In this document: in pieces, positions 2,524 through 14,149 of the stretch
Layout: the number at the start of each line of letters is the position of its first letter
Position numbering within the stretch: the first letter of the stretch is position 1
Virus record (IMG/VR): IMGVR_UViG_3300032030_000013
Source: a virus
Lineage: Duplodnaviria; Heunggongvirae; Uroviricota; Caudoviricetes
Direction: 5' to 3' (one strand)
Length of the DNA: 39,433 bases
Notes under the pieces: generated by a model
What the model was told of the DNA's origin: nothing
The model's database searches: none
Seen by the model: the letters and a program-made list of their open reading frames with translations, nothing else
Made by a program: the position numbers and the translations under genes

Positions 2524-2600
2524 TGGGGACGACGGGGGTTGAACCCGCATGCAACCAATTACCCTTTCGACACTTTATAAGAGTGAGGGGTTACGTCCCT
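2524..2600 (-). tRNA. rewired tRNA-like RNA, anticodon TAT (Ile)
   Basis: Order: acceptor - ACCC - CACT/CTTATAA/AGTG - GGGT - AATTGG - T arm - acceptor. Confidence 0.75.
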
Positions 2601-2759
2601 AAATTATGGAGACAACCTGATAAATTCTCCATAGAATTGGTTAAGAGTCGTTCGGCTTTGGTTGATAGTCTAGTTAATTTACCGGCTTACTAATCCTCCC
2701 AATTCATTTTAACTATCATTCTACTTACGTCAGTTCGTGTCCCTATTACGGGCTCGGAG

Positions 2760-2833
2760 TTGCGACTCCTGGATTCGAACCAGGGACCTTCAGGTTATGA
2801 GCCTGACGAGCTACCAACTGCTACCAAGTCGCG
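2760..2833 (-). tRNA. tRNA-Met(CAT), initiator-like
   Basis: C1:A72, CT-CAT-AA. Confidence 0.9.
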
Positions 2834-2844
2834 ATATTATTTTG

Positions 2845-2919
2845 CAGGTCCTGAAAGATTCGAACTCTCATCGTGCAGGTTTGGAGTCTGCTGTTTTGCT
2901 CTTTTTAAACTAAGGACCC
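2845..2919 (-). tRNA. tRNA-Trp(CCA)
   Basis: CT-CCA-AA, G73; D loop lacks GG. Confidence 0.88.
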
Positions 2920-3069
2920 ATATTATATTGTTATTAACAACTGTGGGTGTCCTAAATACCTGGAACCTTTGGCTACGGCCCGCATGCGGAGTCGAGTTGA
3001 CTTTTAGAACCATTGTTAATATTCAAAGTGATATTCCTACTTTATACCCACTTTCCTTTTACAATATTG

Positions 3070-3142
3070 TACGCCCACTGGGACTCGAACCCAGGACCCA
3101 CGGATTAAAAGCCCGTTGCTCTACCAACTGAGCTATGAGCGC
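3070..3142 (-). tRNA. tRNA-Lys(TTT)
   Basis: Cloverleaf, CT-TTT-AA. Confidence 0.95.
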
Positions 3143-3256
3143 AAATCTCATTTATCTATTGACTCCCATATCGGAATTTTACCGAAATGAAAACGCTGCA
3201 TCGTAAGGAGCGGGATTTTACCCCTAAGATAAACTCGATTAATTATTGTAACCTTG

Positions 3257-3337
3257 TGCCCTCTGTGGGACTCGAACCCACACCTCCGAAGAGCTAGATC
3301 CTTAGTCTAGTGCGTATACCAATTCCGCCAAAAGGGC
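3257..3337 (-). tRNA. tRNA-Leu(AAG)
   Basis: CTAGA-CTAAGGA-TCTAG, class II arm, A73. Confidence 0.92.
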
Positions 3338-3345
3338 ATATTGTG

Positions 3346-3419
3346 TACCTCCGGTGGGATTCGAACCCACGCTCCTATGCTTAAGAGGCATCAGCTTTAA
3401 CCAGCTAAGCTACAGAGGC
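3346..3419 (-). tRNA. tRNA-Lys(CTT)
   Basis: Cloverleaf, CT-CTT-AA. Confidence 0.94.
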
Positions 3420-3634
3420 ATTTAAAAGCTTCGGTTTTAACTTTGTTATCTTTTTGTATAGGATCATCAATCTATCTTTTCACCAGAGTAATTAGCTCAG
3501 GGTCCCGATTACGGACTTCTACCGTTTATCATATTCAATAACTAAGACTTGTAGATAGGCGAAGCATTTCGAACTACTTCATTGCCAACCGTAGCTATAA
3601 ATTTCTCTACAAGTTTTTGCATGGCATGCAATTG

Positions 3635-3707
3635 TGGGGCCACCCAGATTCGAACTGGGGTGACGACCTTGTAAGGGTCGCATACTCAACCACTATATGA
3701 TGTCCCC
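3635..3707 (-). tRNA. tRNA-Val(TAC)
   Basis: CGACC-CTTACAA-GGTCG. Confidence 0.93.
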
Positions 3708-3876
3708 ATTTATAATCTAATCTACACAGCTGACCCATTTCAGTAACGTCTTACATATCAGCTCCTACTGGTCACGACTGAACGTCTTCTTCTGCGAGAA
3801 GGTTTCTCACCTCCATTTTTTTGACCTGCCTCTTCCCCTTCAGAATTTTTAGATTCTGACCTCGATTAGATTATTG

Positions 3877-4064
3877 AACTCACGGGAGGATTCGAACCTC
3901 CATAATATTGTCTATAATATTTAATTTACTAAATAGCAAAAATGTTATTTTCTTAACACGTTAAACAAATTGCTAATAATTATGATTATATTTCTCTATT
4001 ATTTATATAATCATTCGCCTCTATTATAGGTTGTACTGCTGATACCATTCAGCAACCGTGAGTT
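3877..4064 (-). ncRNA. tRNA-like RNA with ~130-nt domain replacing the anticodon arm
   Basis: AACTCACG/CGTGAGTT, D arm GCTG-AATGGTAT-CAGC, T arm GGAGG-TTCGAAT-CCTCC. Confidence 0.7.
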
Positions 4065-4199
4065 AACTAATATATATTTCCTTGTTTTTTGTCCATTACG
4101 TTATACTCGGAGTAAAAAACTAAATATATAAAATTACAAAACCACTTAGAATATAACGGTATATTTGTTGCTAAGGTAATATACAAAACCTCAATTAAG

Positions 4200-4272
4200 T
4201 GCTCCCACCCGGATTCGAACCGAGACCTGACAGATTAAGAGTCTGCTACGCTACCATTAACGCCATGAGAGC
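4200..4272 (-). tRNA. tRNA-Lys(CTT)
   Basis: Cloverleaf, CT-CTT-AA. Confidence 0.94.
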
Positions 4273-4286
4273 AAACTTTCAAATTG

Positions 4287-4359
4287 TGCATCCACTGGGA
4301 TTCGAACCCAGACCTGACAGATTAAAAGTCTGCTACGCTACCATTAACGCCATGAATGC
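4287..4359 (-). tRNA. tRNA-Lys(TTT)
   Basis: Cloverleaf, CT-TTT-AA; D and anticodon arms match 4200..4272. Confidence 0.94.
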
Positions 4360-4365
4360 AATTAG

Positions 4366-11846: not shown

Positions 11847-12082
11847 ATACACGTGGCTCTTTCGAGTTTCGTGAAAGATATGGTATCTTTCTGAGGTTCC
11901 TCGCCCTCTATAGGATGTGGTACATATCTGAAGATACAGGTACAACAACTCTAACTAACGCTTCTATAGATTCCTCAGACCACGCACTTAAGGAACAGAA
12001 CGTACGATTTCTCCTAACACCATAATATTAGGCTACTTCGATTCATAGGCCTGTGCACCAACCTATGACGGCATGCTTTAAT

Positions 12083-12403
12083 TTATAAACCCATTTGTTT
12101 TTGGTATTCTTTATCTCTTCTGTCTATTTCTGACAAAGGTGATACACCAGCATTTAATAATTCTATTTTTTCAAATCCATTTTCTTTAGTAATTAATGAA
12201 TCTTTCTCTGGTACGCATCCTTCATATCGTTCTCCGTATGATCCTGTCATTTTCTTAGTTGCAGGATCCAAATCTCCCCAATCAGCAGAATGAGTATTAC
12301 CTATAGGTTCTATAAAATATTTCTTTCCTGTGATTTTTGATTTAACAATAAAACGACCAGTCTTATCACTATCTTTCAAAAATCTATTATCATCTATTTT
12401 CAT
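12083..12403 (-). CDS. hypothetical protein (106 aa, DWGD motif)
   Basis: ORF with coding-like composition between RNA genes, same strand as the array. Confidence 0.8.
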   Translation of the reverse strand: MKIDDNRFLKDSDKTGRFIVKSKITGKKYFIEPIGNTHSADWGDLDPATKKMTGSYGERYEGCVPEKDSLITKENGFEKIELLNAGVSPLSEIDRRDKEYQKQMGL

Positions 12404-12426
12404 TTTCTCTACATATTATATATCTG

Positions 12427-12517
12427 CGGAGACGGCCGGACTCGAACCGACACACCGTTATTCACGATTACTAGTAGTTTTCAAGACTACTGCCTTACCA
12501 ATTAGGCTTACATCTCC
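12427..12517 (-). tRNA. tRNA-Ser(TGA)
   Basis: GGAG start, CT-TGA-AA, long arm, G73. Confidence 0.95.
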
Positions 12518-12665
12518 AAAATAATACCTTTACATTCCACTATCCCGTACAACTCTAATATTTTGCCTTGATGAATGATACACTAATGTATGTTGCTACA
12601 CATTGGTTGCCTACGGTAACTTCTTCTATTTATTAAGATAGATGTTTCCTTCAAGATATTCACGA

Positions 12666-12749
12666 GGTGGTATGTTGGATTCGAACCAACGTGAGCTCTC
12701 GCTACCAGGACCACAATCTGGCGTCATCGGCCACTAGACGAATACCACC
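12666..12749 (-). tRNA. tRNA-His(GTG) with long variable arm
   Basis: G-1:C73, TT-GTG-GT, extra arm AGC-GAGA-GCT. Confidence 0.88.
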
Positions 12750-12914
12750 ATATATAAAATCATCTTACACAGACTATTTCAAGTCATCCTTAACGCCATG
12801 AAACTAGAAGGTTCTATTTAAATAGAAATGGCATCCAACTGTTCTCCTCTCTGAATATCCATATTCTTTGCCATTAGAATATAGTTCTTTTCAGACCCTC
12901 AGATGATTTTATTG

Positions 12915-12989
12915 GGTATCGTGTCAGATTCGAACCGACATCTCAGTGATTCACAGTCACCGCCTTTTACCAGTTAAGTTAACGACACC
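12915..12989 (-). tRNA. tRNA-His(GTG)
   Basis: G-1:C73, CT-GTG-AA. Confidence 0.9.
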
Positions 12990-13193
12990 ATATTAAATCA
13001 GGTCAACCGCGCTCCCTGATATGTCCCGATACGTTTTTCATCATATTCAAGGCATATGACTGCACAAGCTGCGAGGGCGGGATTTCAACGTAAACCTCGG
13101 TACGGCCCTAAGCGGATTTATAAGAGGCCTCAGGGGTATCCTCTATTGGAGCAGGGCGGACATGCTGCGTACCTCACAGCTCCCTGCATATTG

Positions 13194-13265
13194 AGCAGCG
13201 TACCAGATTCGAACTGGCTCCTTAAGAATGGCGATCTCATATGCAACCATAAACACCTACACTGC
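13194..13265 (-). tRNA. tRNA-Gly(GCC)
   Basis: TC-GCC-AT (C33 instead of U33), U73. Confidence 0.85.
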
Positions 13266-13414
13266 ATTATTCGGTTTTCCTTAGATCCGAAAACTTAGTT
13301 CCGTGTCACGCCATCTGAACCCTCGCCTATGCATACTTCCTATATAATATATATTACGTAATTCAATTATATAGTCATAGGATATTTCTTTAAAGAAATA
13401 ATCAAAGAAGTTTG

Positions 13415-13545
13415 TCGCGGAGGTTGGACTCGAACCAACATAATCTTTTTCCAAATAAAAGCGTGTATACCGAAGTAACTCTAATCTACAGCATTCATAT
13501 TGAAGCAACAGCGAATAAAGTATTAAAAAATTTCACCACTCCGCG
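13415..13545 (-). tRNA. tRNA (Gln TTG or Pro TGG register) with Y-module insertion (~13472..13528) in the D loop
   Basis: CGCGGAG/CTCCGCG-A; GTGAAATT[insert ending AGAGTTACTTC]GGTATACAC. Confidence 0.75.
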
Positions 13546-13635
13546 AAATAAATAGTCTCTCCTATTAGTCACAACATTTTTTCTTAACCTTAAGTAATTA
13601 TAAATTACGCAGGAAACCTTGTTAAACCTGCCGTG

Positions 13636-13709
13636 TAGCCCCCACGGGATTCGAACCCGTTATTCCGGCTTGAGAGACCGACGACTTAAACCAATCTGTC
13701 CCGAGGGCC
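13636..13709 (-). tRNA. tRNA-Glu(CTC)
   Basis: CT-CTC-AA. Confidence 0.9.
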
Positions 13710-13721
13710 ATCAATTAAGAA

Positions 13722-13797
13722 TGGAGCATCTGATGGGAGTCGAACCCACGTCTTAGGCTTGGAAGGCGAACGTACTGAACCGTTATACGACAGATGC
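13722..13797 (-). tRNA. tRNA-Gly(TCC), encoded CCA
   Basis: CT-TCC-AA, ends TCCA. Confidence 0.92.
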
Positions 13798-13972
13798 ATT
13801 ATATAGGCACCGTATTATATCATTAATATAATTTAAATTTTAATATAAAACGGTGCCCACATTAAAGACAGTTTTTAATATTTGATGAAATTAATCATTC
13901 AAACTCCTATGAAGGATTTAACGTGGAGAACCTTGGGAGCACCCTTCGTTACCAAACTCCATTACTAATGCG

Positions 13973-14045
13973 AGCGGCTGATGGGAGTCGAACCCACGTC
14001 ACTGGCTTGGAAGGCGAGTATAATAAACCGTTATACGACAGCCGC
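13973..14045 (-). tRNA. tRNA-Gly(TCC)
   Basis: CT-TCC-AA, U73. Confidence 0.92.
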
Positions 14046-14073
14046 ATATAATATCTTTATATTAATATAAATG

Positions 14074-14149
14074 TACCGAGGGTGAGGGTCGAACTCACGT
14101 GAACCAACTAACCTTTCAACGCCTTATGAGAGCGAGGGTATACCTCGGC
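14074..14149 (-). tRNA. rewired tRNA-like RNA, anticodon CAT (Ile2-like)
   Basis: Same layout as 2524..2600: GCCGAGG-TAT-ACC-CT-CGCT/CTCATAA/GGCG-TTGAAA-GGT-TAGTTGG-T arm. Confidence 0.75.

Follow-up and report, generated by a model that had tools for sequence, protein, structure and literature searches.

Two isoleucine-type tRNA genes with a reordered D-arm in a phage cluster of ~55 tRNA genes

INTRODUCTION

Outside organelles, the cloverleaf of transfer RNA (tRNA) is, to our knowledge, treated as universal. Genes that depart from its segment order are reportedly found in the red alga Cyanidioschyzon merolae (said to be described by Soma et al. in Science in 2007), where they are circularly permuted. 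The permuted genes encode the 3′ half ahead of the 5′ half, and processing by way of a circular intermediate gives rise to a normal cloverleaf. Here, we analyzed a 39,433-nucleotide stretch of DNA from a virus of the class Caudoviricetes (IMG/VR record IMGVR_UViG_3300032030_000013), hereafter “the window,” in which the tRNA cluster of the phage, with ~55 genes, contains two genes that encode isoleucine-type tRNAs with a reordered D-arm. Judging from their sequences, both elements are probably working tRNA genes of the isoleucine family, a reading that we hold with good confidence.

The literature on tRNA shape offers a limited set of comparisons. According to a 2024 paper, every known tRNA of bacteria is a cloverleaf (PMC11551756), and a 2020 review of noncanonical tRNAs, in which phages and the rewired layout go unmentioned, records that D-armless mitochondrial tRNAs (mt-tRNAs) have lost the D stem together with the G18G19 elbow contact and are flexible and shortened (PMC7609411). 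IMG/VR was surveyed for structured RNAs in 2023, and among the results are unresolved “tRNA-like” candidates that only sometimes overlap ARAGORN calls (PMC10690425); that survey may have touched the rewired family without describing it. A full-text literature search found no published description of the rewired topology. The two genes belong to a widespread, phage-borne tRNA variant that is apparently undescribed.

RESULTS

Two minus-strand genes share a reordered layout

The original prediction had proposed one common order of segments at 2524-2600 and 14074-14149, and this order was matched exactly at both loci, on the minus strand. The 5′ part consists of a 7-nucleotide (nt) acceptor 5′ strand, U8 A9, a 4-nt strand X, a C, and the anticodon arm, and the 3′ part consists of a YGAAA linker, a strand X′, the segment A(A/G)UUGGUU, a linker of 3 to 4 nt, the T arm (loop UUCRACC), the acceptor 3′ strand, and A73. 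Copy 1 runs AGGGACG / UA / ACCC / C / UCACU-CUUAUAA-AGUGU / CGAAA / GGGU and continues with AAUUGGUU / GCAU / GCGGG-UUCAACC-CCCGU / CGUCCCC / A. Copy 2 runs GCCGAGG / UA / UACC / C / UCGCU-CUCAUAA-GGCGU / UGAAA / GGUU and continues with AGUUGGUU / CAC / GUGAG-UUCGACC-CUCAC / CCUCGGU / A. As had also been claimed, the stems differ in sequence between the copies while their pairing is kept. The elements are listed below, where the scores are those of R2, a covariance model built solely from 90 relatives in other contigs (alignment A5).

2524..2600, minus strand: copy 1, rewired tRNA-Ile(UAU) gene, 77 nt; R2 score 87.1 bits over the full length
2588..2591, minus strand: copy 1 strand X (ACCC), stand-in for D-stem strand 22-25; pairs with GGGU at 2561-2564
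2577..2579, minus strand: copy 1 anticodon UAU in the 7-nt loop CUUAUAA
2565..2569, minus strand: copy 1 linker CGAAA, from the anticodon stem to X′
2553..2564, minus strand: copy 1 X′ (GGGU), then the D-loop-like AAUUGGUU with the equivalents of A14, R15, G18, and G19
2532..2548, minus strand: copy 1 T arm, a 5-bp (base pair) stem with loop UUCAACC
14074..14149, minus strand: copy 2, rewired tRNA(CAU) gene, 76 nt; R2 score 81.2 bits
14137..14140, minus strand: copy 2 strand X (UACC), of which ACC pairs with GGU of X′ at 14110-14113
14126..14128, minus strand: copy 2 anticodon CAU in the loop CUCAUAA
14102..14113, minus strand: copy 2 X′ (GGUU), then the D-loop-like AGUUGGUU
14082..14098, minus strand: copy 2 T arm, GUGAG-UUCGACC-CUCAC

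In each copy, the purine at the equivalent of position 15 matches the nucleotide directly before the T stem, as in a 15:48-like pair: A15 with U at 2549 in copy 1 and G15 with C at 14099 in copy 2.

Covariation across a large family supports the exchanged D-stem strands

We searched viral contigs for relatives in two scans. The first used a motif from the linker, X′, and the D-loop-like part and returned 101 stretches, among which R1, a covariance model built from the two window copies, confirmed 88 full-length members at 64 to 96 bits. Because this motif fixed most of X′, a second scan was run that was anchored only on U8 A9, C26 U27, the CUNAUA loop, U43, GAAA, A14, R15, and G18 G19, with no constraint on X, X′, the T arm, or the acceptor stem; it gave at least 119 stretches. 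Both scans were filtered for closed acceptor, T, and anticodon stems, and X/X′ pairing was not a filter. The combined family comprises at least 142 distinct sequences in at least 207 occurrences on viral contigs (counts given below out of 142 or 207 are among the matches listed). The covariance model search across phage genomes that had been proposed along with the original prediction thus recovered a large family.

Covariation of X with X′ in homologs had been named beforehand as the test on which the proposal could fail. We observed that X positions 2 to 4 pair with X′ positions 1 to 3 in 142/142 sequences, through 13 sequence combinations that include CCC/GGG, CUC/GAG, ACC/GGU, CGG/CCG, UCC/GGA, and CCG/CGG, as well as AAC/GUU, CGC/GCG, CAC/GUG, AGG/CCU, and GCC/GGC. 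In A5, a structure-blind MAFFT alignment of 90 diverse members, none of which came from the window, the three X/X′ pairs formed in 90/90 members (270/270 cells) with 4, 5, and 2 pair types, respectively: the pair of columns 11 and 39 is CG in 66 members, AU in 20, UA in 3, and GC in 1; that of columns 12 and 38 is CG in 58, UA in 15, GC in 12, UG in 3, and AU in 2; and that of columns 13 and 37 is CG in 77 and GC in 13. Over the whole structure, 89% of cells were paired, a value that dropped to 48 to 50% when partners were shifted by one column, and the observed covariation score was reached by 0 of 500 shuffles. RNAalifold independently predicted the same structure, X/X′ helix included. When the X, X′, 15, and 48 columns were excluded from tree building, we counted at least 37 state changes of X/X′ on the resulting tree, which is short and weakly resolved; the firm minimum is 11 changes, given 12 states in 90 sequences. 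This family-wide covariation bears out the earlier suggestion of a non-cloverleaf tRNA class and supports a layout in which the D-stem strands would be exchanged around the anticodon arm.

These data also bear on a different description of the two genes, namely as D-armless tRNAs with a long unstructured variable region, where X and X′ would be unpaired and the GG motif incidental. Such tRNAs occur in animal mitochondria (PMC7609411), and the Rfam tRNA model does align both copies in this way. However, X/X′ is paired in every cell of the alignment with multiple compensatory types, the ARnnGG segment, the CA, and Y48 are conserved in the family, and the X/X′ helix is recovered by RNAalifold, so that we consider a D-armless structure very improbable.

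The nucleotides around the exchanged helix are conserved in the manner of a tRNA core. The purine after A14 and the nucleotide that ends the linker before the T stem vary together much as a 15:48 Levitt pair would: the combination is A:U in 90 sequences, G:C in 39, and another in 13 of the 142, and the window holds one of each of the two main types (copy 1 has A:U and copy 2 has G:C). At the outer position of X/X′, the family conserves a U.U, similar to the frequent 13.22 mismatch of ordinary tRNAs, and position 27.43 is likewise a conserved U.U. U8, A9, and A14 are invariant in the family, as are G18 G19, T54, U55, C56, R57, and A58, which the search patterns had in part imposed. No variation is seen at C50, A51, A58, and A73 either, though they were free in both patterns; in the first scan’s set, C32 and U33 are invariant, and so are U8, A9, A35, U36, and A37, which that scan had left free. 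The linker GAAA was kept in members that were found by the model alone and not by a search pattern. As for the remaining helices, all seven pairs of the acceptor stem covary, with 97.8% of cells paired; the T arm has a 5-bp stem with 97.1% of cells paired; and the anticodon stem has four covarying base pairs plus the U27.U43, closing a 7-nt loop.

The family is almost exclusively carried by phages

When the first motif was run on one genome each of ~186,000 bacterial and archaeal species, it gave 36 matches, of which 9 were true members, located in 8 metagenome-assembled contigs of 5 to 400 kilobases (kb), and the remainder were chance matches. The family is thus almost phage-only. The IMG/VR carriers include jumbo phages of 363, 411, and 429 kb that are 96 to 98% complete and hold 1 to 2 copies each. 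Among deposited phage genomes, a copy is present in ~45 cultured Streptomyces phages, in Rhodococcus phage Peregrin, and in the crAss-like cr130_1, and nearly all of the listed deposited records have no annotated feature beneath the match. In Streptomyces phage Jay2Jay, for example, a match of 87.3 bits with anticodon GAU lies in an unannotated gap at NC_029098.1 75237-75313, and a canonical tRNA-Ile(UAU) is annotated 2 kb from it. This rewired tRNA-Ile(GAU) gene stands 13 nt downstream of a gene annotated “nucleotidyltransferase” (L244, NC_029098.1, 1960-2481). A few distant, lower-scoring relatives have the same layout with the arginine anticodons ACG and UCU; the window contains none of these.

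Closer to the window, copy 2 recurs with 100% identity in a related contig (L090), where the flanking DNA is 84 to 97% identical, and it differs from its counterpart in a second relative (L067, with T stem GUCAG/CUGAC, from a 38-kb record with an estimated completeness of 14%) by two compensatory T-stem changes. Identity in the one relative and compensation in the other suggest that copy 2 is under selection. One could instead regard the two elements as decaying pseudogenes or recombination scars of a fast-evolving tRNA array, given that the array does include degenerate-looking tRNA-like pieces. Yet at least 142 distinct sequences keep intact covarying helices, including those of near-complete jumbo phages and cultured Streptomyces phages, and copy 2 is preserved unchanged between diverged flanks, which leaves a negligible probability for decay.

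Standard scanners miss the rewired genes

The tRNA array of the window occupies the minus strand from ~370 to 17460, with 53 genes called by ARAGORN and 50 by Rfam. At default settings, the 53 ARAGORN calls, all on the minus strand, include neither rewired copy, and the Rfam scan of the window at gathering threshold reported neither. The Rfam tRNA model (RF00005), whose gathering threshold is 29 bits, assigns 23.0 bits to copy 1 and 24.8 bits to copy 2 with the same ends as proposed; in its alignment of both copies, the acceptor, anticodon, and T arms are aligned, the D arm is deleted, and 17 to 18 nt are inserted in the variable region. That standard scanners would miss the class had been expected, and it proved correct, with no call by ARAGORN and a subthreshold score in Rfam. 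The relaxed, intron, and mitochondrial modes of ARAGORN produced mutually inconsistent models at the two loci (a 93-nt Ile tRNA with an unpaired 20-nt variable arm, a Leu(UAG), and an Ala with an intron), which were rejected.

The dedicated models separated the two genes clearly from their neighbors. R1 found the two copies only, with canonical tRNAs at 27 bits or less. R2 matched both copies over model positions 1-77 of 77, with E values of 2.8e-23 for copy 1 and 1.6e-21 for copy 2, while its next-best matches in the window were canonical tRNAs at 25.5 bits or less; the scores of the two copies far exceed chance. Full scans of the window with R1 and R2, filters off, found no further rewired copies. 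Across the family, ARAGORN calls overlapped 5 of the 207 copies. Because of this low overlap, and because the gene is mostly unannotated in Streptomyces phages, phage tRNA repertoires are under-counted, and arguments on phage codon usage and host independence that build on them need correction.

Anticodons and genomic context point to isoleucine decoding

All 142 sequences of the combined set carry an NAU anticodon (UAU in 95, GAU in 36, and CAU in 11). The second scan required A35 and U36, but the first left the anticodon open and still gave GAU in 44, UAU in 43, and CAU in 1 (88/88 NAU). The tRNA-Ile identity elements, i.e., the NAU anticodon, A37, and A73, are present in both copies and invariant in the family. 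UAU and lysidine-modified CAU both read the Ile codon AUA. Copy 1 would accordingly be predicted to read AUA directly, and copy 2 would do so if its C34 were converted to lysidine. The codon AUA, claimed earlier to be abundant in the genes here, indeed occurs at 36.9 per 1000 codons in the open reading frames (ORFs) of the window, where it accounts for 38% of Ile codons; the GC content of these genes is 29.9%. The original prediction of a tRNA class devoted to AUA decoding was borne out in part: the class is non-cloverleaf as proposed, but it is not AUA-specific, as 36/142 sequences carry GAU and the distant relatives carry the Arg anticodons ACG and UCU.

The rewired genes sit among ordinary tRNA genes. 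Wherever a copy has a tRNA in its locus, the closest one shares its strand (84/84), and the median distance is 37 nt. Copy 1 is neighbored by tRNA-Asn and tRNA-Met and copy 2 by tRNA-Gly and tRNA-Ile, all on the minus strand. In both copies, A73 is followed by C, and no CCA is encoded; since 49/53 of the canonical tRNAs in the window have C at position 74 and 51/53 lack CCA, these 3′ ends fit the convention of the array.

The anticodons of rewired and canonical tRNA-Ile in the same array are complementary. Among loci that have a canonical tRNA-Ile, a rewired UAU occurred with a canonical GAU 17 times and with a canonical UAU once, and a rewired GAU occurred with a canonical UAU 7 times and with a canonical GAU twice (Fisher P = 3e-4, a value computed over related contigs that are not fully independent). 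The window follows this pattern, as it holds two canonical Ile-GAU genes and zero canonical UAU genes in addition to the rewired UAU and CAU.

Complementarity of this kind matters for a reading in which the RNAs are tRNA mimics outside translation, which might lure anticodon nucleases, TilS, or other host factors that bind tRNA, or might act in regulation or priming and merely resemble tRNA-Ile. Phage tRNA clusters do contain non-decoding tRNA-like RNAs, the window holds many other odd tRNA-like elements, and several family members have unusual 1-72 pairs. Against this, a decoy for the anticodon loop needs no invariant A73, no covarying 7-bp acceptor stem, no 12-bp acceptor/T stack, and no elbow nucleotides, and the three anticodons are exactly the Ile isoacceptor set and complement the canonical tRNA-Ile genes of the same arrays. 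The decoy alternative raised in the original prediction is hence disfavored by the conserved acceptor stem, A73, T loop, and G18 G19 and by the complementary anticodons, and we judge mimicry to be unlikely.

Within the reading of both copies as tRNA genes, the identity of copy 2 requires separate consideration. Unmodified CAU reads AUG and serves as a MetRS determinant. Copy 2 might accordingly be an elongator methionine tRNA and not a lysidine-dependent tRNA-Ile2: the CAU members form a subgroup with G1-C72 or G.U in 10/11 and A38 in 11/11, and no TilS gene was found in four carrier records, each 5 to 16% complete. On the other side, the remaining 131 members of the architecture carry UAU or GAU, canonical CAU tRNAs already number three in the window (one of elongator type and two that resemble initiators, with C1.A72), and TilS of the host could supply the modification. 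The simplest reading of copy 2, and its most likely identity, would therefore be a lysidine-dependent tRNA-Ile2, with a methionine tRNA as a possible but distinctly less probable identity.

Other features of the tRNA array and its surroundings

The array holds many nonstandard tRNA-like genes. A tRNA-Asn(GUU) gene at 1900-2040 (minus strand) has a perfect 7-bp acceptor stem, a normal D arm, and a 68-nt insert in the 5′ strand of its anticodon stem; removal of 1944-2011 in silico yielded a 74-nt tRNA-Asn at the default ARAGORN threshold, and an insert of this length is below the size of a group I or II intron. A second tRNA-like gene of 131 nt at 13415-13545 (minus strand) has a perfect 7-bp acceptor stem and a good T arm, with no clean anticodon arm identified, and its insert is ~85 to 90% identical to that at 1944-2011. 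A motif with 8 occurrences at up to 2 mismatches (0.07 expected by chance) sits in inter-tRNA spacers and within both inserts, often alongside AAUACUUUAnUCGCUGUU. Rfam at gathering threshold reported no Y RNA family in the window.

617-634, 801-818, 1951-1968, 13472-13489, 15225-15242, 15370-15387, 16523-16540, and 16795-16812, minus strand: occurrences of GUAGnnnAGAGUUACUUC

At 5825-5920 (minus strand), Rfam reports a 96-nt tRNA (34.9 bits) with anticodon GUA (Tyr) that has no D hairpin; 8 nt lie between its acceptor and anticodon stems, and its variable arm, CCACG/CGUGG, has a 25-nt loop. This tRNA-Tyr may be another non-cloverleaf design. At least 14 more good T-arm motifs of the GGUUCRANNCC type occur outside the scanner calls between ~1900 and 17000 on the minus strand, several of which close an acceptor stem of 6 to 7 bp: these are 4679-4760 (82 nt, tRNA-Tyr(GUA)-like), 8272-8397, and 5525-5624, with further such elements at 2305-2376, 11778-11846, 10784-10847, and 11708-11767.

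Near 2067, 2325, 3897, 4699, 5545, 7670, 8292, 8855, 10804, 11728, 11798, 14536, 16745, and 16994, minus strand: T stems outside the scanner calls

Two CAU tRNAs, at 917-988 and 2759-2833 (minus strand), have an initiator-like C1.A72 mismatch, by which the phage would carry two initiator-type tRNAs. No tRNA-Arg gene emerged from ARAGORN or from the rewired-tRNA models at 1-17500, although AGA amounts to 19.3 per 1000 codons in the ORFs of the window; the array may continue past the window. Beside the array, two very large adjoining ORFs lie on the plus strand at 17950-22881 (1643 amino acids) and 22883-26674 (1263 amino acids), and two ORFs lie inside it on the minus strand at 9423-10595 (390 amino acids) and 1015-1800 (261 amino acids). 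None of these four had a match in Pfam, PHROGs, or NCBIfam, and a protein atlas search with the 390-amino-acid ORF gave no usable match.

DISCUSSION

How the rewired chain could form an L-shape

In our model, the helices and contacts of the L-shape would be kept, and solely the order in which the chain visits them would be changed. The backbone would start with the acceptor 5′ strand, U8 A9, the equivalent of D-stem strand 22-25, the anticodon arm, and the GAAA linker, and would go on with the equivalent of strand 10-13, a D-loop with G18 G19, the linker of 3 to 4 nt ending at the equivalent of 48, the T arm, and the acceptor 3′ strand. The acceptor and T arms would stack as 7 + 5 bp, and X/X′ (3 bp plus the conserved U.U), C26, and the anticodon stem would give 4 + 1 + 5 layers, the same count that a canonical tRNA reaches with its D stem, position 26, and anticodon stem. 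The nucleotides for the contacts U8-A14, R15-Y48, G18-U55, G19-C56, and T54-A58 are all present.

In a normal tRNA, strand 22-25 enters position 26 and the anticodon stem directly, and strand 10-13 follows 39-43 in helical register. The rewired chain would make its joins from 43 to 10 via the GAAA linker, from 9 to 22, and from 21 to 49. The purine-rich linker would probably lie in the groove of the X/X′ helix, at the usual site of the variable loop, where the nucleotides of a normal tRNA make triples with the D stem. We would expect such tRNAs to be processed, to receive CCA, to be charged by IleRS, and to decode.

Several points weigh against reading the two elements as working tRNAs of this shape. 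The equivalence to the L-shape is a three-dimensional one that we infer from conserved nucleotides. The raw covariation counts overstate the number of events because related sequences are not independent. Most members start with C1-G72, A-U, or U-A and not with the usual bacterial G1-C72, and, in the window, copy 1 has an A1.C72 mismatch (copy 2 has G1.U72). Across loci, the rewired anticodon does not track AUA usage, as the AUA share showed no difference between loci of the UAU and GAU types (P = 0.94; P = 0.08 after correction for GC). Lastly, the minimum-free-energy fold of copy 1 (−24.6 kcal/mol) differs from the proposed fold (−21.6 kcal/mol) and pairs GUAACC with GGUUGC. This last fold was ruled out by the covarying columns, since the covarying partner of column 11 is column 39, not the invariant G46, and that of column 7 is column 70, not the invariant C50.

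Implications

If the same helices and contacts are reached by another backbone path, it would be the L-shape, and not cloverleaf connectivity, that translation requires. One may speculate that the rewiring is adaptive and not neutral, in that Ile (and Arg) tRNAs with an altered core topology and an unchanged outer L-shape would be accepted by IleRS, EF-Tu, and the ribosome, yet would not be bound or cut by tRNA-directed host defense nucleases or core-recognizing enzymes, although we regard this as doubtful. In that case, they would be a natural semi-orthogonal scaffold. The rewired scaffold could also be of use for engineering tRNAs. Since the rewired gene is present in cultured phage-host pairs, its function is directly testable.

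Comparison with known systems

The rewired class shares much with canonical tRNA-Ile (RF00005): the 7-bp acceptor stem, U8 A9, the 7-nt loop C32 U33 NAU A37, the 5-bp T stem, the UUCRA loop, G18 G19, A73, a length of 76 to 77 nt, and a location in tRNA arrays. It differs in that A9 leads to the anticodon stem through just 5 nt, with no intervening hairpin. The 22-25-type strand stands ahead of the anticodon arm, its partner, the 10-13 strand, follows on the 3′ side together with the D-loop that bears the GG, and the GAAA linker takes the place of the variable loop. The class departs from two cloverleaf features, the position of the D hairpin and the Rfam threshold, and would otherwise be expected to work like a class I elongator tRNA-Ile.

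Like the D-armless mt-tRNAs (mammalian mt-tRNA-Ser(AGY) and those of nematodes), rewired tRNAs have no D hairpin between the acceptor and anticodon stems and are hard for scanners to find; in contrast to them, they keep a covarying D-stem-like helix, the GG segment, and the full length, and they occur in bacterial phages. Class II tRNAs (Leu, Ser, and bacterial Tyr) likewise have extra nucleotides between the anticodon and T arms, but their variable arm is a self-contained hairpin beside a normal D arm, whereas the rewired segment pairs back with X on the other side of the anticodon arm. Allo-tRNAs, with 8/4 or 9/3 acceptor/T branches, are also nonstandard and were found in metagenomes and phages, yet they keep cloverleaf connectivity and alter stem lengths alone (PMC5389517). 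Circularly permuted tRNA genes resemble the rewired genes in that their segment order departs from the cloverleaf. The termini of the rewired genes, however, are normal, with acceptor strands at both ends, and it is the internal segments that are exchanged; because no simple cutting and rejoining restores a cloverleaf, the mature rewired RNA must itself be non-cloverleaf.

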